From Escherichia phage dw-ec, in sequence record OL739525.1: a stretch of DNA of 64,000 nt, one strand, 5' to 3'. Below the pieces are notes generated by a model. It ran no database searches, had not been told where the DNA came from, and worked only from the letters and a program-made list of their open reading frames with translations. Shown here piece after piece: positions 19,416 through 56,966 of this stretch (the stretch's first letter is position 1; each line of letters opens with the position of its first letter). A program made the translations under genes and the position numbers.

Positions 19416-20231
19416 TTATTTGTTTAAGTGGTCTTCGACCATTTTAATGAAACCTTCATTGCTGAAGGCTGTTGCAGCTTTTTCTCGGTAAACAAAAACT
19501 CCACGATCTTCATAGAGAAGTGTTTCTTCGTAATTAACTCCAGGGTTAACTACAACCATTTTTGTACCCATACTAAGTGCAGGAAATAATTCCCAATTAA
19601 AATTGATAACTTGGTTTGAACATCCTACTACTACAACCAAATCTTGCATGGTCAAAGTATCGAACAAGTGAGCCATATCTGCATACAAAGGTGCAGCCTC
19701 ACCAAAAAATACAACATTAGGCTTCACCCAGTTATAATCATCTATGTTTATACTATTGTAACCGATATCTACCAGTGTTTTGTAATCTCCAGGATGCATA
19801 CGGTAAACCACTTCAGGAAGATATCCGTGCACGTGAATAACAGAATCTCTGTCTACACCTGCTCGCTCTAGTAGATCATCAACGTTTGTTGTCAAGTTTA
19901 CTACTTGGTTAGGATATTCTTTAAACCATTTTGCTATTTGAATATGTGCAGCATTAGGCTGTACATCTTTAAGTTCAACACGTCTTTTGTTATAAAATTC
20001 GTGTGTTTTGGCATACAAATCCATGCCGTTCTCGTCTACACCACCGACCACTGGAAGATCTGGAGATGTTCTAACACGATAACCTGCTTGGAAAGCTCCA
20101 ATATCGCAGACCTCTTCTAAATCATATTCTTCCCATAAGGCACGACCACTGTCGGTGTCTGTTCGGAATGTTCTAATACCACTATCTGCACTTAAACCTG
20201 CACCGCTTACAAAAATCACTCGTCTTGGCAT
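19416..20231 (-). CDS. Sir2 (sirtuin) family NAD-binding protein
   Basis: motifs VIFVSGAGLSADSGIRTFR, LTTNVDDLLERAG, HVHG, VVFFGE, VVVGCS match the sirtuin Rossmann core. Confidence 0.6.
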   Translation of the reverse strand: MPRRVIFVSGAGLSADSGIRTFRTDTDSGRALWEEYDLEEVCDIGAFQAGYRVRTSPDLPVVGGVDENGMDLYAKTHEFYNKRRVELKDVQPNAAHIQIAKWFKEYPNQVVNLTTNVDDLLERAGVDRDSVIHVHGYLPEVVYRMHPGDYKTLVDIGYNSINIDDYNWVKPNVVFFGEAAPLYADMAHLFDTLTMQDLVVVVGCSNQVINFNWELFPALSMGTKMVVVNPGVNYEETLLYEDRGVFVYREKAATAFSNEGFIKMVEDHLNK

Positions 20232-20701: not shown

Positions 20702-20759
20702 ATTCCCTCCTATAAAAGAAAAGCCCCCTGAAACAGGAGGCTTTGTTCAGATATCGGCA

Positions 20760-21413
20760 CTATACCAGACTTTCAAGGTATTTGTCAAGGGCTTCTTGAT
20801 CACCTTGACAAACATAGCAACGGAAGTCTTGAGCCGAAGGTTGTTTATTTTCATCCCAGTCCCAATAAACATTACCCTTATAACGTGAACCAGGAAACTC
20901 AAAAGAGGCTGTATGTGTAATGTACCCTGGGCCACCAGTGAAATCACAGAATGAGAATTGGGGGTATGCCGCCTTTACTGCCTCAATAAACCAAGCTTTA
21001 CGATCTAAAGCTTCATTGATGCTATACGCATGTCTCTCCATTTCTTCCCACGTTTTCCAGACACTTCTCTCATCAGGAGAAAAGACAAGCCATTCTGGAA
21101 GGTATAGAGTGTCATAGTAATCATCATATTCGATCTCGGAGGCGCACGAAGCTGACTCCTCCAGTTTTGAGTAATCAAAAGCAGAATATACCCACCAACC
21201 ATCTTCCAGTAAGGCTTTGATAGGGACGAAGCCTTTATCAGCATATTGATCGAATTGTTTGACACGGTGGCTTGTGCAGTCTTCAAACTCACATTCTAAA
21301 CGATATGCACCTTTTCGACGAGCCTCAAGACCGTGTGTACTGAAAATAACAACACTTCCTTCACCATCATTACGATCTACTTGATAAGCAACCACTGGTT
21401 TTGAATTTGACAT
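20760..21413 (-). CDS. hypothetical protein
   Basis: ORF with RBS; 217 aa. Confidence 0.5.
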   Translation of the reverse strand: MSNSKPVVAYQVDRNDGEGSVVIFSTHGLEARRKGAYRLECEFEDCTSHRVKQFDQYADKGFVPIKALLEDGWWVYSAFDYSKLEESASCASEIEYDDYYDTLYLPEWLVFSPDERSVWKTWEEMERHAYSINEALDRKAWFIEAVKAAYPQFSFCDFTGGPGYITHTASFEFPGSRYKGNVYWDWDENKQPSAQDFRCYVCQGDQEALDKYLESLV

Positions 21414-22096
21414 TATTTCTCCTTATCTAGAAGATTGTTAGACAAAAACACTGCACGAGCAAAACCACGTGCGGTTAGTGATCTAAGTTGTTTTGTTTTT
21501 GCACTAGCTCCACCTAAGCTTTTCCAACCCCAGAAGCAGCCTATATGATCTACTGGTTTCTTCACTGGTTGAACAAAACCGTTGCCGTGCCAAATACAAG
21601 TTTTCTTTGTATACCCATCACGGGTAGGCATTTTAGGATGAAAGCTTCCTTCCTCTTCAAACAAATACCCACCATACTCATAAGGATCAAAGTAAAAATC
21701 GGGTTTACGCCATAAGGTTGAAAGTTTACCTACTGGGTTCTCAATCATCCAAGGAACATTATATTTGTTACCCAAAGCTTCCACTACACGAATATTAGCT
21801 AAAGCTTCATCCAATGCCTCTGTGCTGCGTTCGTGTTTGCTACCACTACCTGCTAACATAGTGCAAGGTGGAAATCCAAAAATAATATCGGGTTTAGGTA
21901 TCCCATGATCTTCAGGGTTGAATGTAGAATCTATCCAGGCATTCACATAGGTTATGTTTGGGTGCTCCATCCTAACCTCGTATTTACCGTGATCCCCTTC
22001 ATCAGCGTTTACACAAAAACATTTGTGACCTGCTTCGGCATAACGTAACACCATGATCCCAGATCCGTCAAACATAGACAAAACTGTTTTACTCAT
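21413..22096 (-). CDS. DNA (cytosine-5)-methyltransferase-like protein (short, catalytic core only)
   Basis: motif I-like SMFDGSG, motif IV GFPPCTMLAG (PC), motif VI IENPVG (ENV); start set at internal ATG with RBS ggagggg. Confidence 0.5.
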   Translation of the reverse strand: MSKTVLSMFDGSGIMVLRYAEAGHKCFCVNADEGDHGKYEVRMEHPNITYVNAWIDSTFNPEDHGIPKPDIIFGFPPCTMLAGSGSKHERSTEALDEALANIRVVEALGNKYNVPWMIENPVGKLSTLWRKPDFYFDPYEYGGYLFEEEGSFHPKMPTRDGYTKKTCIWHGNGFVQPVKKPVDHIGCFWGWKSLGGASAKTKQLRSLTARGFARAVFLSNNLLDKEK

Positions 22097-22502
22097 TACC
22101 CCTCCATTCAAGACAAGCCATAACTTTACGCCAATCACTTTCTGTAAGAAAAATCTCGTTTGCTTTCTTCCACAAATCTAAATCGTGAAGGGTTGGAATA
22201 CGATATGTTAGTTCACAGAATCTATGCTCTTCTTCTGTAATATAACCAAAATGCAGAGCCACATCGTGAAACCAACACCAACCATGCATCTCTCGAACAA
22301 CATGGTCATGTTGAGACATTATTTTATGCCGTAAACCTAACCAACAAGGAACAGATACTTTAGTAGTCTTTAATCTGTGATCAACAGTATTAGAGTATTC
22401 AATAATAGCTGTCAGTTTCAATCGTGCTTTTTCTAAATCCTCATGGGTCACTTTGAAATAACTTTCTGAAAGATATCCACACATATTAATAACCTCCTTC
22501 AA
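22089..22502 (-). CDS. hypothetical protein
   Basis: ORF in operon, 137 aa. Confidence 0.45.
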   Translation of the reverse strand: MKEVINMCGYLSESYFKVTHEDLEKARLKLTAIIEYSNTVDHRLKTTKVSVPCWLGLRHKIMSQHDHVVREMHGWCWFHDVALHFGYITEEEHRFCELTYRIPTLHDLDLWKKANEIFLTESDWRKVMACLEWRGNE

Positions 22503-23427
22503 AAGGCTTAACTACATGTTGATTAGCTTTAAAACGTTCAACATAGTCGTTTTCGCCCATGTTTTCATATAGCTTAGTAATAACATAAAAGTTTTCCCAA
22601 GCATATTCCCTAAACCAACCACTAGTGATGGATGTGCAGACTTTAGATAAAGCCATTATAAAACTTTGCTTAGGGGTTGGACCTCCGATCTCTTCACCGA
22701 AAGGAATTTGTGAACGTTCCAAAGCCAAAACACACGCTTCTTCATAAACACCTAACAGGCGCACATGTTTTGGTTGAGCAAAAAACTTTTCTTTGCTGGT
22801 CATAACTTCACTTCCATCTTTCATATAAGATTTATATGCTGGAGCATCCATTACCGCGATTGCTTCATGGATAGAATCATGATCATAAACATACGGAACC
22901 TCATCACCTTTAAAGAAGTCTTTACTTTTTACGTTTAAGTTCGGATGAGAGTAAGTGTATGTTTCTTTCTCACGCAACTCATAAATACTCTTAAGATTTT
23001 CTGGGATCTTTGCACCCAGTGACCGCATGAAATGAATATCTTTCATAGTTTTAAAGAAGTGAGGACTATCCTTTTTAAAACGATGACTCATTTTAAGAAG
23101 GTAGAGCACATCTAAAGGAGCAACAACATGTCCAGCGTAAGTTCGACGAACATCATCAGAATCTTCACAATAACTAATCAAAGCTTCTGTGCTATCTCCT
23201 TGAGAAGCAATATCGTATTCCAAATGTGCACCAGCTATCATTTTGACATGGCCTTTGTTTCCTTTACGTTCTACAAGTTCAACAAACTCATCTTGAGAGA
23301 ACATTTTTGATAATTCTTCCCACTCTTGTTCTGTACACAGGTAATCTAAATCTACACAAGGGCGATACAAGTCTTTTCCCATGTCCATAGTATGAATTTG
23401 TAATGCACGGCTACCAATTAACACCAT
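22486..23427 (-). CDS. hypothetical protein (possible Pol-beta-type nucleotidyltransferase motif)
   Basis: N-terminal LIGSRAL...DLDYL resembles the GS...DxD nucleotidyltransferase signature, but spacing is atypical. Confidence 0.4.
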   Translation of the reverse strand: MVLIGSRALQIHTMDMGKDLYRPCVDLDYLCTEQEWEELSKMFSQDEFVELVERKGNKGHVKMIAGAHLEYDIASQGDSTEALISYCEDSDDVRRTYAGHVVAPLDVLYLLKMSHRFKKDSPHFFKTMKDIHFMRSLGAKIPENLKSIYELREKETYTYSHPNLNVKSKDFFKGDEVPYVYDHDSIHEAIAVMDAPAYKSYMKDGSEVMTSKEKFFAQPKHVRLLGVYEEACVLALERSQIPFGEEIGGPTPKQSFIMALSKVCTSITSGWFREYAWENFYVITKLYENMGENDYVERFKANQHVVKPFEGGY

Positions 23428-23483
23428 AATATTTCTCCTCTATTGGTTGATAGGTTAAGTTTATCAAGCTTCCAGATTCCTGT

Positions 23484-23508
23484 CAATAAAAAACCCGCCG
23501 AAGCGGGT
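23484..23508 (-). terminator. intrinsic terminator (minus strand)
   Basis: hairpin acccgcttcggcgggt followed on the minus strand by TTTTTATT. Confidence 0.6.
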
Positions 23509-23517
23509 TATTATTTA

Positions 23518-24776: not shown

Positions 24777-25267
24777 AAAACCTCCTCAATCTTGTAGTTT
24801 GACTCCATCTCCAACACATTTCCACGAACGTCTCTCCGAAGAAAGGCATAAGCTTTATTAGGTATTGTAGACTCATATTTAACCATATCTGGCACAGCAA
24901 AAGATACTACTACTCCTGCTGGGCTTCTGTCAAGAGCCTTATTAATATTTCTAAGAATATCGTTAGCCAAGATTTCTGCCAATTCTCCAAGAACAGTTTC
25001 GGTTATATCTTTATATCCCATTAAGTATTTGTTGATATCTTTCATCTCTGTATTGTTCAGAGTATAGTCCAAAGGATAGAAATTCAAAGCGGAGTCACTT
25101 TTATGTGTCCACATGAAATGCACCCGATCAGAGCAGAATCGTAACCCTCTATGAAGAATATCTTCTACAACAGGGAGAATTTCTTTTGTCACATCATTAA
25201 CCATGTTGTAATCTAAGATTTCTGCCAAGTTTGTTCTTTGTTCACCACGTTTACGTTTAGGAATCAC
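24755..25267 (-). CDS. hypothetical protein
   Basis: ORF, 170 aa. Confidence 0.45.
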   Translation of the reverse strand: MIPKRKRGEQRTNLAEILDYNMVNDVTKEILPVVEDILHRGLRFCSDRVHFMWTHKSDSALNFYPLDYTLNNTEMKDINKYLMGYKDITETVLGELAEILANDILRNINKALDRSPAGVVVSFAVPDMVKYESTIPNKAYAFLRRDVRGNVLEMESNYKIEEVLWQSSDQ

Positions 25268-25838
25268 TTGTTATTGCCCTCATTACCAAAGGTCGTAGAA
25301 AATCGTAAATCTCTTGTTTTGTTTTCCCACGAATGTTTAAACAAGGAACATTATTGGCTTTAGCTATCTTCCAAGCCGTAGCTGTTCCACCTTTTGCATC
25401 TCCATGTTTATCAGTATTAGCACAAGCCAACAAGAAACAGGATGGAGCAGGATTTTCCAAATCTCTACCTAACACTTGATGCACATTACGTTGGTGCAAT
25501 TTTCTAGCACCCTGCTTAAGCTTTTCATAAGCTGGGTGAACATCTTTGATCCATTGCACAGAGATAGCATAGTTCATTGTATCTGGTTTTGCAAGAACAA
25601 TAACATCCCCTGGAATCTGATTACCTTTGAAATTTTCCCAAGGAACATAGATCTCCTTGTTAGTAGGATTTTCAGACTCTTGGACACCTGTTTCAAAAGC
25701 AGAATCACTACCCTCTGCCTTCCCAGACCTTAATTTAAACCCAAGGTTTGAAAGCCATTTCCCTATGCCTACCATCAAAGCCCACTCTTCTTCGGATATG
25801 TCTCTACTTCCAACTCCCGTATAGAACAGTTCTGCCAT
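25257..25838 (-). CDS. DprA/Smf-like (SLOG-type Rossmann) protein
   Basis: FYTGVGSRDIS ... LRSGKAEGSDSAFETG resembles the DprA signature GSR ... SG.A.G.D; start at internal ATG with RBS gaggtgatt. Confidence 0.4.
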   Translation of the reverse strand: MAELFYTGVGSRDISEEEWALMVGIGKWLSNLGFKLRSGKAEGSDSAFETGVQESENPTNKEIYVPWENFKGNQIPGDVIVLAKPDTMNYAISVQWIKDVHPAYEKLKQGARKLHQRNVHQVLGRDLENPAPSCFLLACANTDKHGDAKGGTATAWKIAKANNVPCLNIRGKTKQEIYDFLRPLVMRAITSDS

Positions 25839-25845
25839 AATCACC

Positions 25846-26154
25846 TCAACAAGTAATTTCAAAAGGTGTATACGGTTCCGTATTTCTCATGATCCAAGGA
25901 CTGCTAGGATTGCTCGGATCATAAGGACCAAAAGGTTTTATGGTCGGTTGTGTTTCTTTCTTCTGAATCTCTTCAAAAATACGACGAAGTTCAGAATATT
26001 CTTGATCCACCATAAGATTCGGTGCATCTGATTCTACAGCTTGCAGGTTATCTTCCTTAAGAACAATCTCACGAACAAGATTAACATCTTCTGTTTCTAA
26101 GATAACTTCTTTACGGATATTACCTACACTTTGAATAATTGTAATCTTATACAT
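25846..26154 (-). CDS. hypothetical protein
   Basis: ORF, 102 aa. Confidence 0.45.
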   Translation of the reverse strand: MYKITIIQSVGNIRKEVILETEDVNLVREIVLKEDNLQAVESDAPNLMVDQEYSELRRIFEEIQKKETQPTIKPFGPYDPSNPSSPWIMRNTEPYTPFEITC

Positions 26155-26897
26155 TAATCCTCCTCAAGAGTTGAATAAAATTGAAGACCACCGTCCATAT
26201 CGAAATAAGCAAATGTTAAGTTATTATTGAACACAGATCCAGTATCCATATAAACACGATTCGCATTGATAATAGGTGTTTTTACATAAGAGTGTCCATG
26301 AAACACATAATCCACACCCATCACAACAGGAAGTTTCATTCCCTCTTTAGCACAGTCTACCATATCTCTGTCCCACATAAGTGCTTCAGCAAAACGGTTT
26401 TCCTGTGTTTTTGTCATCTTCGAAATGTATTCTGGAATATCTGTTACAGGGAGATATTCCAAAGAAGATGGATACCCACCATGAATAAACGCAAGTTTCA
26501 TGCCTCTGTAGTTAACAATGAGAACAACAGGTAAATCTTCTGTCATCATTGCTAAGGCTGTAGCTCCTTCTTCACCACATTCTTCAAAGACCGTATATCC
26601 TCCGTTTTGATACCAACACTCGTAGTAGCTACGATCTCCTTCCAGCATACCTTTAATCATCATGTCTTCATGATTGCCACGAATAGCGTAGCGATTGTGT
26701 TTACGAGTAAATTCTAAAACACAACGAAAGTTTTGCTTTCCACGGTCAGTAAGATCTCCTAGAGATACAACCACATCTGTATCTCGGATACCTAACTTTG
26801 CCTTTCCTTTTTCATACAAATTATAACAACCGTGTAGATCTCCAATTATAAAAAGATCTTGATCGTTTTTAACAGTAATTTCTTTGTGTATGATCAC
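26154..26897 (-). CDS. Ser/Thr protein phosphatase (metallophosphoesterase, lambda-PPase type)
   Basis: GDLHG, GDLTDRG, GNHE metallophosphatase motifs in order. Confidence 0.7.
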   Translation of the reverse strand: MIIHKEITVKNDQDLFIIGDLHGCYNLYEKGKAKLGIRDTDVVVSLGDLTDRGKQNFRCVLEFTRKHNRYAIRGNHEDMMIKGMLEGDRSYYECWYQNGGYTVFEECGEEGATALAMMTEDLPVVLIVNYRGMKLAFIHGGYPSSLEYLPVTDIPEYISKMTKTQENRFAEALMWDRDMVDCAKEGMKLPVVMGVDYVFHGHSYVKTPIINANRVYMDTGSVFNNNLTFAYFDMDGGLQFYSTLEED

Positions 26898-27223
26898 TTA
26901 TCCTCCTCAAAATCTAAGAAAATAAAAATATTCACCTTTCCTTCAATCTCTTGTTCTAAAACAAGATCGGCAAATTCTGCATAAGCTTTCTCTTCAACTT
27001 TTTCAATATGTTCTGCGGCATCTTTAAAAGGCGTATCCCCATCCACCTTTACTAATAAGAAAAGAGATCGCATTTCGACGTTTTTACTGTTACGAGGAAG
27101 GAAATCTACAGCTTCAACAATTCTCCAACCCAAATAGCCAGGGGTTTTATGAATCTCCCCTAAATACTTTTCTAAGATTTTACGACCCTCGTCGATAAGG
27201 GCTTGTTCTGTAGTAATTTCCAT
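26894..27223 (-). CDS. hypothetical protein
   Basis: ORF, 109 aa. Confidence 0.45.
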   Translation of the reverse strand: MEITTEQALIDEGRKILEKYLGEIHKTPGYLGWRIVEAVDFLPRNSKNVEMRSLFLLVKVDGDTPFKDAAEHIEKVEEKAYAEFADLVLEQEIEGKVNIFIFLDFEEDK

Positions 27224-27233
27224 TCCTTCCTCC

Positions 27234-27824
27234 TCAAATTATTAACGAAACTGCATGACTAAATCTTGGTTCAGATATAACCTCTGCTACAGTCACATAT
27301 GTATCGTGCAGCCAAAAAGATTCTACTCTACAAACACAAATACCGTTGATAATGAAATCTACACAGGCTTTATTATTTTCGCACACTTGTTGACTATAAA
27401 CAACCCCTAAAGAGTCATAAAGTGATCTCACTGTTGCTACCATTTCATCTGTTTCGTCTTCCTGTGAAACAAAGAAAACGAATACAGACAAGTTATTAGC
27501 GAAAGTATTGCTATTCTCTACTTCAACCGACTTACAAGGTAAAAAGGAGTAATATTTACCGTTAGGTATCAATTTCGCCTCAACCTGGTTAAGTATGCTT
27601 TGAGATGGTTTTGTTACATAAAAAAGATTTTCTGTTGGGTTTTCAACATTACTCCTTACTATGCAACGAGTGGGGTTCGAAGGATCAAAAACATGATCGA
27701 AATCGACACACACAGGTAAGTTAACAACTTTAAACTTTTTGCTAAGAATGCTTACTGCTGTAAAAATCAAACCAGCATTTATTTTGCCAGTGAAAGTTGA
27801 ACGCATAACTACTCCTCGGATCAT
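27234..27824 (-). CDS. hypothetical protein
   Basis: ORF, 196 aa. Confidence 0.45.
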   Translation of the reverse strand: MIRGVVMRSTFTGKINAGLIFTAVSILSKKFKVVNLPVCVDFDHVFDPSNPTRCIVRSNVENPTENLFYVTKPSQSILNQVEAKLIPNGKYYSFLPCKSVEVENSNTFANNLSVFVFFVSQEDETDEMVATVRSLYDSLGVVYSQQVCENNKACVDFIINGICVCRVESFWLHDTYVTVAEVISEPRFSHAVSLII

Positions 27825-28015
27825 TCTACCAAAGAGAATTCCGCCTCTTCCAGGTAGATTACAGACCTTGTTGCATGATATTTAACGCTCCAGAAATTAC
27901 CTTCGCGCCGTAAAAGTATCTCATTCACATCAAGATTGCTTAGAAAAACCATATAACTTAAAGCTTGTTGACGCGTTGAGAATTGTTTCTCTAAAAGTTC
28001 TTCTCCGCTCTGCAT
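27821..28015 (-). CDS. hypothetical protein
   Basis: ORF, 64 aa. Confidence 0.35.
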   Translation of the reverse strand: MQSGEELLEKQFSTRQQALSYMVFLSNLDVNEILLRREGNFWSVKYHATRSVIYLEEAEFSLVE

Positions 28016-28060
28016 AATCCCTCCTTAAAATACTCCCTCCGAAAAGGGAGTATAAGTATA

Positions 28061-28264
28061 TCACGTAGTTGTTATGTTGTCTTCTTGGATACTAGAATCC
28101 ACTTCTGCAAACATATCTTCTGCACTGTAATTATTTCCAGTCCAGCGTGATAAAAGGATAGCACCAATCTCTTTTGCATGAGATTCGGACTCCGCATAAA
28201 CGTTAGTCCCAGTGTCACCTTTTTTCTTTTCATGTGCATAAATGCAGTAATAATTGTAAGCCAT
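28061..28264 (-). CDS. hypothetical protein
   Basis: ORF, 67 aa. Confidence 0.35.
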   Translation of the reverse strand: MAYNYYCIYAHEKKKGDTGTNVYAESESHAKEIGAILLSRWTGNNYSAEDMFAEVDSSIQEDNITTT

Positions 28265-28500
28265 TAATCTTCCCAGTCATTGCCCTCGGTAGAGTGAACT
28301 AAAGCTCGCACGATACCACCGTAATCTACTGCCTGATTTGCAGCATGTTCGGCATAAACTTCAATGGCTTTTTTGAAGAAAAGAGCAGTAGCTGCTTCAA
28401 TATTATCCATTTCGCCATCTACGTCAGTAGAAAGTGAAAGGTTGAGGCTTTCATCTACTTCATCAAAATCAATAGCCACTGTCATAATTAGTTTACCCAT
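28264..28500 (-). CDS. hypothetical acidic protein
   Basis: ORF, 78 aa. Confidence 0.4.
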   Translation of the reverse strand: MGKLIMTVAIDFDEVDESLNLSLSTDVDGEMDNIEAATALFFKKAIEVYAEHAANQAVDYGGIVRALVHSTEGNDWED

Positions 28501-28512
28501 AGTTCACACTCC

Positions 28513-29022
28513 TTAAACAAAATAAAATGGTTGAGAGAGGCCCAAACGATTCTTTGGGTCGTATACATACCAAGCGTATGCTGTCTTATCTGTTCCACCT
28601 GCAACAAACGAAGGCCGTTCTGAAAGGACTATAAGGTTTGTTGGTGGATTCTTTTGATGGAACTCTCGTCGTTTCTTTGACTCCAAGAAGCCCAACCGAA
28701 GAAGATAAATACAAACATCCGCCTCTTTTAAGCTCTTTTCCAAGAACTCCATTGCTAACTTAAATGGAGGGTTTGTAATTATAATGTCGGGACGATTTTC
28801 CCATTCATGACTAAAATAATCTTTACCTTCTTCAAGTTCGCAATATTCTGAACCTTCAGGAAAATGGCGATAAATCGCTTCAGCTTCACCTCTGCAAGGT
28901 TCTGCAAAAACCCAACCTTCTTCCTTTAGATTTTTGAAATCTATAACACTAAACAAACTATTGATTGCTTTTTGCGGTGTCGGATAATAATCGCTCGTTG
29001 GGCGATCATAATCTAATGCCAT
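28513..29022 (-). CDS. DNA N6-adenine methyltransferase-like protein (small phage Dam-type)
   Basis: YYPTP N-terminal motif and catalytic IIITNPPF (NPPF). Confidence 0.55.
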   Translation of the reverse strand: MALDYDRPTSDYYPTPQKAINSLFSVIDFKNLKEEGWVFAEPCRGEAEAIYRHFPEGSEYCELEEGKDYFSHEWENRPDIIITNPPFKLAMEFLEKSLKEADVCIYLLRLGFLESKKRREFHQKNPPTNLIVLSERPSFVAGGTDKTAYAWYVYDPKNRLGLSQPFYFV

Positions 29023-29440
29023 CTAAAATCTCCTCTTTTGTAATATTATCCAACTCTTTAAAAGATGAAATCTCGTTTAATAATCCTATTTGATCAGCCT
29101 CTAGAGGATAAGTGTTTTTATCTGTTTTTCTAGACAGAATATCTTCAACAAACTTATCAATAGCCAAAGAAGAATCATAAAATTTTAAAAGTTGGTAATC
29201 CATAGGAGATATTTTATCATCTCTTAGAAATATTTCTAACATGTTTTCAGGAGTATCGTGGTTTAGTTTATGTTCACCAAAAATATTAACTTCGTAAACA
29301 TCTTTGCCAAACCAACGTTTTTTCTTTTCAACAGTATAGGTTTTTGCCACCAGACCATCTAAACAGTTTCTTGCTCTCTTACATGTTTGACGGTAAGAGT
29401 GGATAGCGCCTTCAACAAACTTAGCAGGAACTTGTAACAT
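29006..29440 (-). CDS. hypothetical protein
   Basis: ORF, 144 aa. Confidence 0.45.
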   Translation of the reverse strand: MLQVPAKFVEGAIHSYRQTCKRARNCLDGLVAKTYTVEKKKRWFGKDVYEVNIFGEHKLNHDTPENMLEIFLRDDKISPMDYQLLKFYDSSLAIDKFVEDILSRKTDKNTYPLEADQIGLLNEISSFKELDNITKEEILDGIRL

Positions 29441-29454
29441 TATTAATCTCCTAT

Positions 29455-29477
29455 GTTTAAGAAATGCCCCCGAAGGG
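29455..29477 (-). terminator. intrinsic terminator (minus strand)
   Basis: hairpin gcccc-ttcg-ggggc followed on the minus strand by a T-rich run. Confidence 0.5.
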
Positions 29478-29485
29478 GCAGTTTG

Positions 29486-30178
29486 TTAAATAGCGGTTTC
29501 TTCGAAATCCGCCACATTTACGAGATTAATATTTTCAGATTTAGAAGTCAAGTTGTTTTCTGCAACAGATTTTTCTTCAGTATCCGCCTCGTTACCTGCC
29601 ACGTTACGAGGTTCTTCTTCACCGTAGGGATTACCGAATTTCAAAAGATTGATTAATTCTTCTTTGGAGAAGTTTTCTAAATCATCATCTGTTAATTCAA
29701 TAATCTCATCTTGTTCTTCAATAAATGTTTCACCACCAGAAAAAGCATCTCGCTTTTTAGCTACTTCCATAGCCTGTTCTGGTGTTGCTCCTGCATCAAG
29801 AGCAGCTAAAGCAAAGTCTGACCCGCTTCCTACCGCATAATATTCTTCATCAATCGGATATGCACGTGTTGGGTTGTTACCTTCGTGCAGGAAAATACGT
29901 CCATCTGGATGAACAACAAGTGCAATAAACTCTTCATCTTCTTTATCTGGATCAGAGTGAATCATCAAACCAGGGACAGCATCACGTGCTGCTTCGCACT
30001 GTAGATTTTGTTCAAACCATTGAAAGAAAGAAAGCACGGAGGTCAGACGACCAGCACCGCCTACAAGGTAATCTCCAATTTTTCGGACCTTTTTGAAATT
30101 AATAGAATCTACACGTCCACCAAAAGTTACCTTACCGTCACTCAAAATCTTATTTTTGGTCGCAATAATTGTCGTCAC
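29486..30178 (-). CDS. HslV-like Ntn-hydrolase peptidase with acidic C-terminal extension
   Basis: N-terminus MTTIIATK (Thr nucleophile after Met), GSGSDFALAAL resembles the HslV GSGG motif; about 60-aa acidic tail. Confidence 0.55.
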   Translation of the reverse strand: MTTIIATKNKILSDGKVTFGGRVDSINFKKVRKIGDYLVGGAGRLTSVLSFFQWFEQNLQCEAARDAVPGLMIHSDPDKEDEEFIALVVHPDGRIFLHEGNNPTRAYPIDEEYYAVGSGSDFALAALDAGATPEQAMEVAKKRDAFSGGETFIEEQDEIIELTDDDLENFSKEELINLLKFGNPYGEEEPRNVAGNEADTEEKSVAENNLTSKSENINLVNVADFEETAI

Positions 30179-55042: not shown

Positions 55043-55117
55043 GGCCCTGTAGCTCAATGGGAGAGCTGTCGGCTCATAACCGATAGGTAGCTGGATCGAA
55101 ACCAGCCAGGGCCACCA
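55043..55117 (+). tRNA. tRNA-Met (anticodon CAU)
   Basis: acceptor ggccctg/cagggcc, anticodon loop ctCATaa, T-arm and encoded CCA (hand fold). Confidence 0.7.
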
Positions 55118-55119
55118 AC

Positions 55120-55194
55120 GTCTTTATGGTGTAATGGATAGCACAGGAGTCTTCTAAACTCTTAGTCAAGGTTCGATTCCTTGTAAAGACACCA
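55120..55194 (+). tRNA. tRNA-Arg (anticodon UCU)
   Basis: acceptor gtcttta/taaagac, anticodon loop ctTCTaa, T-loop ggttcgattcc, CCA (hand fold). Confidence 0.65.
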
Positions 55195-55390
55195 GAACAT
55201 TTTAACATGAATTAGCTCAAGTGATTTGAACCCACTACTGATCATGGTGGCAGAGAATGAGGCAAGTATGTCAGACATTATAAACAAAGGCCACGGTTAT
55301 ATTAGAAGACATAAATGCTCGAAGAGCACCGTTCGTTGAGAACGGGGGTTGGTGGAGTCACCATTCATGGTAAAATGTTTTAAAAAACTA

Positions 55391-55420
55391 TTGACAACTA
55401 ACATTATTTTATGTTAGATT
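55391..55420 (+). promoter_or_regulatory. sigma70-like promoter inside the tRNA cluster
   Basis: TTGACA at 55391-55396, TTAGAT/TAGATT 17-18 bp downstream. Confidence 0.45.
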
Positions 55421-55428
55421 ATAAGTAT

Positions 55429-55519
55429 GGAAGGGCAAATCGATGTGGCGACGAAAACGGTCTTGAAAACCGCCGAGCTTGAAAGAGCCTTGGGAGTTCG
55501 ACTCTCCCTCCTTCCGCCA
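55429..55519 (+). tRNA. tRNA-Ser (anticodon UGA), type II
   Basis: acceptor ggaaggg/tccttcc, anticodon loop ctTGAaa, long variable arm, CCA (hand fold). Confidence 0.6.
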
Positions 55520-55524
55520 GATTA

Positions 55525-55610
55525 GGTAGATTGGTGAAATGGTAGCCACAACAGTTTGCTAAACTGTAGTCGGAAACGGCGTGTAGGTTCGAGTCCTACA
55601 TCTACCGCCA
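55525..55610 (+). tRNA. tRNA-Ser (anticodon GCU), type II
   Basis: acceptor ggtagat/atctacc, anticodon stem acagt/actgt with loop ttGCTaa, long variable arm, CCA. Confidence 0.65.
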
Positions 55611-55740
55611 AGTTCTTTTTAATATAGCTTACTTTAATAGAGTAAACTTTCGGCAGATGGCCTCCACCATCTTACCGATAACTCATAGTTAGTGGTGTGA
55701 ACACTGGCTATTTTAAAAAGAATTTAAATATTAGTATTTA

Positions 55741-55828
55741 GGTGAGTTAATTCCGTAGGGGTAGCGGGGCAGACTGTAAATCTGTTATCATTGCGATTCG
55801 GGTGGTTCGACTCCATCACTCACCACCA
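55741..55828 (+). tRNA. tRNA-Tyr (anticodon GUA), type II
   Basis: acceptor ggtgagt/actcacc, anticodon loop ctGTAaa, long variable arm, CCA. Confidence 0.65.
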
Positions 55829-55834
55829 AATTAA

Positions 55835-55920
55835 GATGAGTTGGCTGAATGGTTTAAGCGGCGGACTGTTAATCCGTGTTCGAAAGAACGATATAGGTTC
55901 AAATCCTATACTCATCGCCA
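55835..55920 (+). tRNA. type II tRNA, anticodon apparently GUU (Asn-reading), identity uncertain
   Basis: acceptor gatgagt/actcatc, 3-bp D stem, anticodon stem gcgga/tccgt with loop ctGTTaa, variable-arm hairpin gttc-gaaa-gaac, CCA (hand fold). Confidence 0.5.
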
Positions 55921-55927
55921 GAATTAT

Positions 55928-56004
55928 GGACTTGTAGAGTTAAGGTAAACCCCCAGTCGCCAAGAGGCTTCTGGAATTGCAGGTATCGAATCCTGCCGAG
56001 TCCC
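55928..56004 (+). ncRNA. tRNA-like sequence, fold unresolved (possible degenerate tRNA)
   Basis: acceptor-like pairing ggacttg/cgagtcc and T-arm-like gcagg..cctgc, but no clean anticodon arm. Confidence 0.3.
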
Positions 56005-56010
56005 AGTTTT

Positions 56011-56085
56011 GCTCCTATAGTATAATGGCTATTACAACGGTTTTGTAATCCGTGGATCTCTGTTCGATTCAGAGTGGGAGCACCA
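56011..56085 (+). tRNA. tRNA-Thr (anticodon UGU), tentative
   Basis: acceptor gctccta/tgggagc, T-arm ctctg-ttcgatt-cagag, anticodon loop ttTGTaa with a U-U at the stem end, CCA. Confidence 0.5.
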
Positions 56086-56358
56086 ACATAACATTAAGAG
56101 CACTGTGATTGATCGTCGTATCCTGTGCACAAGGTCTGCTCGAAAGACAGTGTTCTTAGTATTGTGTTGATCACACAAAGAGTTACCTGAAACTTGACCG
56201 GAGTAGGGTTGGATGGGGCAAAAGAAGAAGCGGCTCTCCCATCGACAGCAACGAAGAATAATATTTGACTTTGGTTTTGTATTATTTTAAGTTAGCTTAC
56301 CGAACGTAGGGCTAGTCACCCAATGGGATACTCGTCACTGTCCCACTCAATAAAACTA

Positions 56359-56388
56359 TTGACAACCAATAGTAAAATGTAGTATAGT
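56359..56388 (+). promoter_or_regulatory. sigma70-like promoter inside the tRNA cluster
   Basis: TTGACA at 56359-56364, TATAGT at 56383-56388. Confidence 0.55.
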
Positions 56389-56399
56389 AAAGATGTAGG

Positions 56400-56473
56400 G
56401 CGTTCTTGGTGTAGCGGTAGCATTCCGTCCTTCCAAGTCGGCGGCACGAGTTCGATCCTCGTAGAACGCTCCA
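56400..56473 (+). tRNA. tRNA-Gly (anticodon UCC)
   Basis: acceptor gcgttct/agaacgc, T-arm acgag-ttcgatc-ctcgt, anticodon loop ctTCCaa, CCA. Confidence 0.6.
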
Positions 56474-56571
56474 AATTATTTAATAAAGGGTTGCCAGAAA
56501 ACTTTCTCTTTTACTCATGGTTTTCTCCTTCTCTCACACCTCTTCTGGTTGCCCTTCATTAAATGATTTAT

Positions 56572-56647
56572 TGGTTTGTAGTGTAGTCCGGTAGCACACG
56601 ACACTTTGACTGTCGTAGGTTTGGTTCAAATCCAGACAGACCAGCCA
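56572..56647 (+). tRNA. tRNA-Gln (anticodon UUG)
   Basis: U1-A72 acceptor tggtttg/cagacca, D stem gtgt/gcac, anticodon stem cgaca/tgtcg with loop ctTTGac, CCA. Confidence 0.65.
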
Positions 56648-56652
56648 TATAA

Positions 56653-56729
56653 CGGAATTTAGCTCAGTTTGGTAGAGCATACGCTTTGGGAGCGTAGGGT
56701 CGCAGGTTCGAATCCTGCAATTCCGACCA
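56653..56729 (+). tRNA. tRNA-Pro (anticodon UGG)
   Basis: acceptor cggaatt/aattccg, anticodon stem tacgc/gcgta with loop ttTGGga, T-loop ggttcgaatcc, CCA. Confidence 0.7.
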
Positions 56730-56735
56730 ATCAAA

Positions 56736-56809
56736 TGTTTCGTAGTTCAATGGTAGAACCCACGACTGATAATCGTGAGACACAAGTTCGATTCTTGTCG
56801 AAACAACCA
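56736..56809 (+). tRNA. tRNA-Ile (anticodon GAU)
   Basis: acceptor tgtttcg/cgaaaca, anticodon stem cacga/tcgtg with loop ctGATaa, T-arm acaag-ttcgatt-cttgt, CCA. Confidence 0.65.
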
Positions 56810-56811
56810 GT

Positions 56812-56881
56812 TTCCCGTTAGACTTACAGGATAAGAGTTCCACAACTTATTGTGATGCTGGTTCGAATCCAGCACGGGATA
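56812..56881 (+). ncRNA. tRNA-like sequence with canonical T-arm but aberrant anticodon region
   Basis: T-arm gctgg-ttcgaat-ccagc and partial acceptor pairing; anticodon arm would need a 10-nt loop; no CCA. Confidence 0.3.
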
Positions 56882-56887
56882 CATAAT

Positions 56888-56966
56888 AGCGGGATAGAGG
56901 AGTCTGGTCGTCCTCGCCAGTTTCATATGCTGGAGATCATCGGTTCAAATCCGATTCCCGCCTCCA
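56888..56966 (+). tRNA. tRNA with anticodon CAU (Met or lysidine-Ile), A1-C72 mismatch
   Basis: acceptor agcggga/tcccgcc, D stem gagg/cctc, anticodon loop ttCATat, T-arm atcgg-ttcaaat-ccgat, CCA. Confidence 0.6.

Follow-up and report, generated by a model that had tools for sequence, protein, structure and literature searches.

The canonical DNA C5-cytosine methyltransferases, such as M.HhaI, M.HaeIII and Dcm of E. coli (Pfam family PF00145), contain a target-recognition domain (TRD) and have Q-x-R-x-R as their motif VIII and ENV as their motif VI. The catalytic domain of the mammalian enzymes DNMT3A and DNMT3B has R-x-R in motif VIII and a motif X, forms a dimer or tetramer, and reads the CpG dinucleotide only. 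A 'Dcm-like' enzyme is known from phage K42, a 95%-identical relative of the BASEL phage KarlJaspers. All K42 escapers of the retron Ec86 (Retron-Eco1) disrupt a 711-bp gene; expression of this gene raises 5-methylcytosine (5mC) on the multicopy single-stranded DNA (msDNA) of the retron, as determined by LC-MS (liquid chromatography coupled to mass spectrometry), and no rise is seen with the C82A/E128A/K175A/K176A quadruple mutant, the residues of which were picked from the superposition of DNMT3A and an AlphaFold model (bioRxiv 10.1101/2023.08.16.553469). Later papers name the K42-type Dcm as the trigger of Ec86. The gene described here lies at 21413-22096 on the minus strand of a 64,000-nucleotide stretch of Escherichia phage dw-ec (OL739525.1), the whole of which is called the window below. 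Its 227-aa product is about 100 residues shorter than the canonical enzymes, and reads Y-T-K-K-T and ENP in motifs VIII and VI. The DNMT3 catalytic domain is about 55 residues longer, and its identity to the window protein is just 16-19%.

The gene appears to encode an active, S-adenosylmethionine (SAM)-dependent, orphan DNA C5-cytosine methyltransferase of the compact 'Dcm-like' phage family, which would methylate the phage DNA against restriction. The probability of this explanation as a whole, which draws on the sequence, the structural model and analogy with the K42 enzyme, is put at about 0.8. In KarlJaspers (Bas06, MZ501090) the 711-bp gene bas06_0055 encodes a protein of 236 aa annotated as 'Dcm-like C5 cytosine methyltransferase'. 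The window protein is 49% identical to it over the full length (E 2e-71), and Cys82, Glu128, Lys175 and Lys176 of the KarlJaspers protein are paired with Cys78, Glu119, Lys164 and Lys165. This identity and the matching catalytic residues clearly place the window protein in a family of which one member has experimental support. The two proteins share the compact architecture, the catalytic set and the setting, both being encoded in a lytic coliphage by an orphan gene amid small early genes. However, KarlJaspers is a siphovirus of the Drexlerviridae, whereas the window phage is a myovirus of the Stephanstirmvirinae, and half of the Dcm residues differ. The homolog makes 5mC in vivo, and an orphan anti-restriction methylase, one of the options offered in a first reading of the sequence (the original prediction), is the best available reading.

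The family is very large. A search of 5.8 billion proteins found 869 homologs, an exhaustive HMMER search gave 1,770 clusters (50% identity), of which 752 reached E<=1e-10, and tblastn found family members in 1,496 phage records. The carriers include T1-like Drexlerviridae, Dhillonvirus, Vequintavirus, the Salmonella phages 9NA and Jersey, and Klebsiella Webervirus. Nearly all of the HMMER clusters are 200-260 aa long; a short protein is therefore the native architecture in this family, and the length of the window protein is not, as was first supposed, the result of truncation. PHROG 757, labelled 'DNA methyltransferase', matches residues 1-225 (E 3.5e-84), and identity to bas08_0051 of phage DanielBernoulli is 51%. 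A 10-kb slice around the gene shares 99.7% identity with Escherichia phage ETEC-TG and at least 99% with many other Phapecoctavirus (Stephanstirmvirinae) myophages. In ETEC-TG this gene and the second methyltransferase gene of the window, described below, are both labelled 'DNA methyltransferase', and their products are 100% identical to those of the window. Judged by its sequence, the protein is a full-length member of a very common and already annotated family of unusually small phage C5-methyltransferases. The short reading frame is thereby settled as neither a fragment nor a pseudogene, and it belongs to one of the commonest methyltransferase families of enterobacterial phages, found in about 1,500 sequenced phages. 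The original observation is thus correct but mostly ordinary, as the gene was already annotated in GenBank and a homolog already characterised. The interesting remainder is mechanistic: how a C5-methyltransferase without a recognition domain chooses its cytosines.

Conservation was derived from two alignments, one of 112 divergent members and a separate one of 78 sequences. The core invariant in both consists of Cys78 in F-P-P-C-T, Glu119-Asn-Pro121, Pro138, Tyr162-x-Lys164-x-Thr166-x-x-Trp169, Pro177 and the C-terminal block Arg205-x-x-Thr-Pro-x-Gly-Phe-Ala-x-Ala. The stretches FDGSG, GFPPCTMLAG (Gly74 to Gly83) and IENPVG, on which the gene had originally been recognised, are all present in the canonical order, and phmmer, hmmsearch and hhalign align them as motifs I, IV and VI with M.HaeIII or the canonical profile. 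The DGSG of motif I is invariant in close relatives and becomes D-x-[TS]-G across the 112 members. Cys78, the predicted catalytic nucleophile, occupies its column in all 111 divergent members that have a residue there and is equally invariant among the 78; Glu119 is found in 112 of 112 and Pro121 in 111 of 112 divergent members. Such conservation places the motifs far above the level of chance. At motif II the protein has Asn30, which is invariant in the Phapecoctavirus-type subfamily (C-F-N-A-D), the wider family having Asp in 96% of its members. The Asp at this position normally contacts the ribose of SAM.

The protein might also be a remnant that has lost catalysis and persists for some other function, for instance as a DNA-binding protein or a decoy. 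Its shortness, its escape from Pfam and NCBIfam, the lack of recognisable motifs IX and X and of the canonical motif VIII arginines, and the Asn replacing the acidic residue of motif II in its subfamily would all fit a remnant. However, the Cys nucleophile, the Glu of ENP and Lys164 are invariant in both alignments of a family of about 1,800 clusters, the 49%-identical member is active while its quadruple catalytic mutant is inactive, and the model is compact and confident. These observations make a dead protein highly improbable.

The curated sequence libraries largely miss the family. The 227-aa protein has no match in Pfam or NCBIfam and stays below the gathering threshold of PF00145, which is matched by only 1 of the 78 family members, at E 0.007. 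Automated pipelines therefore often label the members of the family as hypothetical. Searches of the PDB sequences reached only M.HaeIII or Dnmt2 (E about 0.1-0.8), covering motifs I to IV or VI; among these, the hidden Markov model searches with two family profiles reached motifs I-IV or I-VI only (E about 0.6-0.8). PADLOC gave only weak matches of residues 1-125 to C5-methyltransferase profiles. Profile-profile alignment by hhalign of the family with eight canonical enzymes, seven taken from GenBank phage records and the first row, M.HhaI, entered by hand, gave a probability of 89% (E 2e-6), the aligned region beginning at motif I and extending past motif VIII to the F-x-x-P element behind it. 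This M.HhaI sequence had also seeded the phage search for the reference enzymes. The predicted structure is compact and confident and has the fold of a C5-methyltransferase catalytic domain. It comes closest to DNMT3A/B and has next to nothing at the position of a TRD. In both fold searches the DNA C5-methyltransferases rank above Dnmt2 and the RNA m5C enzymes. Despite the misses in the curated libraries, three independent lines, the PHROG 757 match, profile comparison and the predicted fold, place the 227-aa protein among the DNA C5-cytosine methyltransferases.

A fold of this type can serve another chemistry. CmoX (PDB 8yf3), a phage C5-methyltransferase homolog, transfers a carboxymethyl group from carboxy-S-adenosylmethionine (Cx-SAM); its hallmarks are SPPC and Arg350, which replaces Asn304 of HhaI. 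An analogous activity of the window protein, supplied by host CmoA, is improbable, as is methylation of RNA or tRNA in the manner of Dnmt2 or modification of free nucleotides. CmoX has 333 aa, a TRD and a usual linkage to CmoA/CmoY, features which the window protein lacks. The latter has FPPC instead of SPPC, and its sole candidate for a Cx-SAM-binding arginine, R214, is variable in the 112-member alignment (R 31, K 19, Q 13, I 11, L 9, E 8). The annotation of the 16 kb around the gene, taken from ETEC-TG, shows neither CmoA nor a CmoY-like ligase, although host CmoA could substitute in principle. The K42 homolog yields 5mC and not 5-carboxymethylcytosine by LC-MS, and the ranking in the fold searches speaks against an RNA substrate. 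The earlier suggestion that the C5 enzyme acts on another substrate has found no positive support.

A profile search for motifs VIII, IX and X was proposed along with the original prediction. In it a motif VIII strand aligns, but as Y-T-K-K-T instead of Q-x-R-x-R, with K164 on R163 and T166 on R165 of HhaI in a register uncertain by up to 2 residues, and is followed by the F-x-x-P element. Y162, K164, T166 and W169 of this strand are invariant in both alignments. Neither the full profile nor C-terminal segments gave a significant hhalign match to canonical motif IX or to motif X (GNxV); for residues 178-227 the best probability was 2.9%, to the helix after motif II. By eye, the block R205-x-x-T-P-x-G-F-A-x-A, in which a helix is predicted at residues 210-220, resembles motif IX (RxLTxRExARLQGFP), a likeness that has no significant hhalign match. 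Just about 35 conserved residues separate the motif VIII-like strand from this block and leave no space for a TRD, in keeping with the earlier remark that the protein is too short for a normal one. A tblastn search for an enzyme of the Justusliebigvirus type found no second, canonical C5-methyltransferase in the window. In this sister genus, Justusliebigvirus alia (OZ035770.1) encodes, at about 305-1310 of the locus, a full-length canonical C5-methyltransferase of about 330 aa, with SPCQ in motif IV, RKLTVKECCRLQGVPDDY in motif IX and a DNMT3-like motif X, GNGWTIPV.

In the proposed mechanism, Cys78 would attack C6 of a flipped-out cytosine while Glu119 contacts its N3/N4; the methyl group would pass from SAM to C5, and beta-elimination would then free the enzyme. 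Early in infection the phage DNA would become methylated, most likely at Dcm-type CCWGG sites. Such methylation would protect it from restriction of unmethylated CCWGG and create no targets (R-mC) for McrBC, at the cost of being sensed by systems of the retron Ec86 type. As the family is a documented trigger of Ec86, its presence leads to the prediction that this retron could sense phages of the Phapecoctavirus type.

Restriction sites were counted over the whole window (1-64000) and compared with a Markov expectation. CCWGG was found 59 times (72 expected, 54 from base composition) and GATC 276 times (284 expected), so that neither is avoided; nor is CCWGG in KarlJaspers, with 125 sites against 121 expected. 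Three sites are about 3-fold depleted, namely GGCC (21 observed, 61 expected), CCGG (17, 50) and GTAC (58, 177), and CTAG was found 75 times (132 expected). Several 6-bp palindromes are absent: CTGCAG (13.8 expected), GGATCC (8.8), CAGCTG (7.3), CCATGG (6.9) and GCATGC (6.0); CGATCG occurs once (7.6). This pattern speaks against either methyltransferase of the window being a promiscuous protector, and suggests that the phage relies on site loss and not on modification against many type II systems. The counts are compatible with protection of CCWGG but no proof of it, since GATC and CCWGG sites are in any case modified by Dam and Dcm of the host. The BASEL study found relatives of the window phage group to be exceptionally sensitive to the restriction-modification systems tested, and its authors could not tie resistance to restriction to methyltransferase genes in any simple way.

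No mapped recognition site or phage methylome was found in the literature on the compact family. In the retron study CCWGG was borrowed from E. coli Dcm instead of being mapped; on the msDNA stem-loop, 5mC was low with just the dcm+ MG1655 host and high with the phage enzyme (bioRxiv 10.1101/2023.08.16.553469). Together with the near absence of a TRD in the 35 or so residues behind motif VIII, and with the narrow CpG reading of DNMT3, the closest fold, these results raise the tentative possibility that the enzyme is an active DNA C5-methyltransferase with a specificity other than CCWGG, recognising a shorter or different motif, hairpin or single-stranded DNA, or replication intermediates. Several observations oppose it. 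Changing CCTGG in the msDNA to AATGG, ACTGG or CATGG abolished the defence (bioRxiv 10.1101/2023.08.16.553469). The depletion of GGCC and CCGG, but not of CCWGG, would be unexpected if a very short or relaxed motif protected those sites, and the strong conservation across unrelated enterobacterial phages fits one common specificity. Moreover, a promiscuous m5C pattern would create McrBC targets in E. coli. Methylation of CCWGG remains the preferred assignment.

A more specific proposal, which must be considered doubtful, is that the TRD-less enzyme methylates in a sequence- or structure-specific way by a mode of reading DNA unseen in solved C5-methyltransferases, with a target differing from that of E. 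coli Dcm. Reading could occur, for instance, through the invariant segments 124-161 and 170-205 or through DNMT3-like dimerisation, and the target could be, for instance, the outer C of CCWGG, or hairpin or single-stranded DNA. A differing target would then account for methylation of the retron msDNA by the phage enzyme and not by host Dcm. If the selection of cytosines by an enzyme with neither a TRD nor the arginines of motif VIII were worked out, it might yield a minimal scaffold on which DNA methylation could be engineered.

The second methyltransferase gene, noted earlier for its YYPTP and NPPF motifs, is present as described, encodes 169 aa, and lies about 6.4 kb from the first (6.5 kb in the original prediction). 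PHROG 799 'DNA methyltransferase' matches the protein with E 2.8e-59, and its sole weak Pfam match, below threshold, is EcoRI_methylase at NPPF (E 0.02). The family comprises 247 homologs, mostly of 165-200 aa, and occurs in 576 phage records; motif conservation (Table 1) was taken from a 29-sequence alignment. The motifs follow in the order YxTP, EPC-G, TNPPF, that is X, I, IV, and because of this order the protein is assigned to the gamma class and not, as had been proposed, to the alpha-class Dam type. The model has a Rossmann-like methyltransferase fold and a predicted local distance difference test score of 89.5. Its best structural matches are MmeI, M.TaqI, M.BseCI, CamA and HsdM, and N6-methyladenine rRNA methyltransferases match equally well (PH1948, 13.1; METTL5, 12.9; ErmC' and KsgA); no alpha-class Dam is among the 60 structural matches listed. 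An N-terminal YxTP is the motif X of the gamma class and a feature of DNA enzymes, and it favours DNA as the probable substrate. Taken together, sequence and model indicate that the product is probably a minimal gamma-class N6-adenine-type methyltransferase, an orphan that modifies DNA. It differs from the gamma-class DNA methyltransferases M.TaqI, the MmeI methyltransferase domain and type I HsdM in having neither a recognition domain nor a specificity subunit. No experimental report on the 169-aa protein was found in the literature. A subset of its family (e.g. P0308, P0321, P0340, P0353, P0375, P0385) carries, between the RPxF strand and the G-TD motif, a Cys-rich, zinc-ribbon-like insert (C...C...CxC) some 30 residues long, which is missing from the window protein and may be an add-on DNA-binding element.

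Table 1. Features of the two methyltransferase genes and their surroundings in the window
Feature	Position	Strand	Basis or remark
Predicted compact 'Dcm-like' DNA C5-cytosine methyltransferase CDS (PHROG 757 family), 227 aa	21413..22096	-	Open reading frame, ATG start
Shine-Dalgarno GGAGGGG of the C5-methyltransferase gene (GGAGG = 22105-22101)	22099..22105	-	Sequence read directly
Motif I codons F9-D-G-S-G13 (SAM-binding loop)	22058..22072	-	Aligned with FxGxG (M.HaeIII, canonical profile)
Motif IV codons F75-P-P-C78-T79	21860..21874	-	Aligned with PC of M.HaeIII/HhaI
Motif VI codons E119-N-P-V-G123 (ENP variant of ENV), preceded by I118	21728..21742	-	Aligned with canonical ENV
Motif VIII-like strand codons Y162-T-K164-K165-T166-C-I-W169	21590..21613	-	hhalign, conservation
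C-terminal block codons R205-S-L-T-A-R-G-F-A-R-A-V216	21449..21484	-	Conservation; family consensus R-x-x-T-P-x-G-F-A-x-A-V
Promoter-like site (TTGACA, 17 nt spacer, TAAACT, TG) ahead of the C5-methyltransferase unit	23458..23486	-	Consensus scan only
Intrinsic-terminator-like hairpin with T-run, between the two methyltransferase genes	23492..23509	-	Consensus scan only
313-aa DUF7277+DUF7275 protein, first gene of the predicted unit	22486..23427	-	PF23940 (DUF7275) E 2e-75, PF23942 (DUF7277) E 1e-13; PHROG 2141
137-aa protein, PHROG 16551; stop overlaps the C5-methyltransferase start	22089..22502	-	Open reading frame, PHROG
217-aa protein, PHROG 8514; start overlaps the C5-methyltransferase stop (TAATG)	20760..21413	-	Open reading frame, PHROG
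Strong terminator-like hairpin (11 pairs + T-run), end of the predicted four-gene unit	20720..20744	-	Consensus scan only
Probable minimal gamma-class N6-adenine-type (amino) methyltransferase CDS, 169 aa, PHROG 799	28513..29022	-	Open reading frame
N-terminal Y12-Y-P-T-P16 codons (gamma-class motif X-like 'YxTP')	28975..28989	-	T15 invariant; Y13, P16 at least 90%
E41-P-C-R-G45 codons (motif I-like)	28888..28902	-	E41, P42, C43 invariant; G45 at least 90%
Motif IV codons N84-P-P-F87	28762..28773	-	T83, N84, P85, P86 invariant
DprA-like protein (PHROG 768)	25257-25862	-	
NinI-like Ser/Thr metallophosphatase	26154-26897	-	
196-aa open reading frame	27234-27824	-	GenBank label 'histidyl tRNA synthetase'
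HslV/proteasome-like peptidase	29486-30178	-	

The ATG at 22096 is the true start of the C5-methyltransferase gene, because a Shine-Dalgarno sequence lies 4 nt upstream, the start overlaps the stop of the upstream gene (22091-22089), and the homologs share this MSK... start. On these grounds the alternative of an in-frame GTG at 22138, which would give 241 aa, was ruled out. The gene is predicted to belong to a four-gene unit with the DUF7277/DUF7275 protein, the 137-aa protein and the 217-aa protein. The placing of both methyltransferases in the same operon is probably wrong, as a terminator-like hairpin and a promoter-like site, both found by pattern matching only, lie between them.

A conserved partner gene was looked for and rejected. 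The flanking genes are unlike the neighbours of a Salmonella prophage homolog, the 217-aa protein having no similarity to the gene downstream of that homolog, and the neighbours in the Drexlerviridae differ again; the C5-methyltransferase therefore has no obligate partner. A Sir2-family protein is encoded just downstream of the unit (19416-20231, minus strand; Pfam SIR2 E 1.3e-22; PHROG 2162), and in Salmonella phage SeKF_80 a Sir2 gene likewise adjoins the methyltransferase of this family.

The second methyltransferase gene lies in a co-directional early block (25257-30178, minus strand) with several enzymes of a host-manipulating look. The label 'histidyl tRNA synthetase' within this block looks implausible, given the size of the protein. 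Farther away, 10 tRNA genes (Met, Arg, Ser, Asn, Thr, Gly, Gln, Pro, Ile, Met) occupy 55043-56966 on the plus strand, the cluster starting just past the switch in GC skew and gene orientation near 54 kb.

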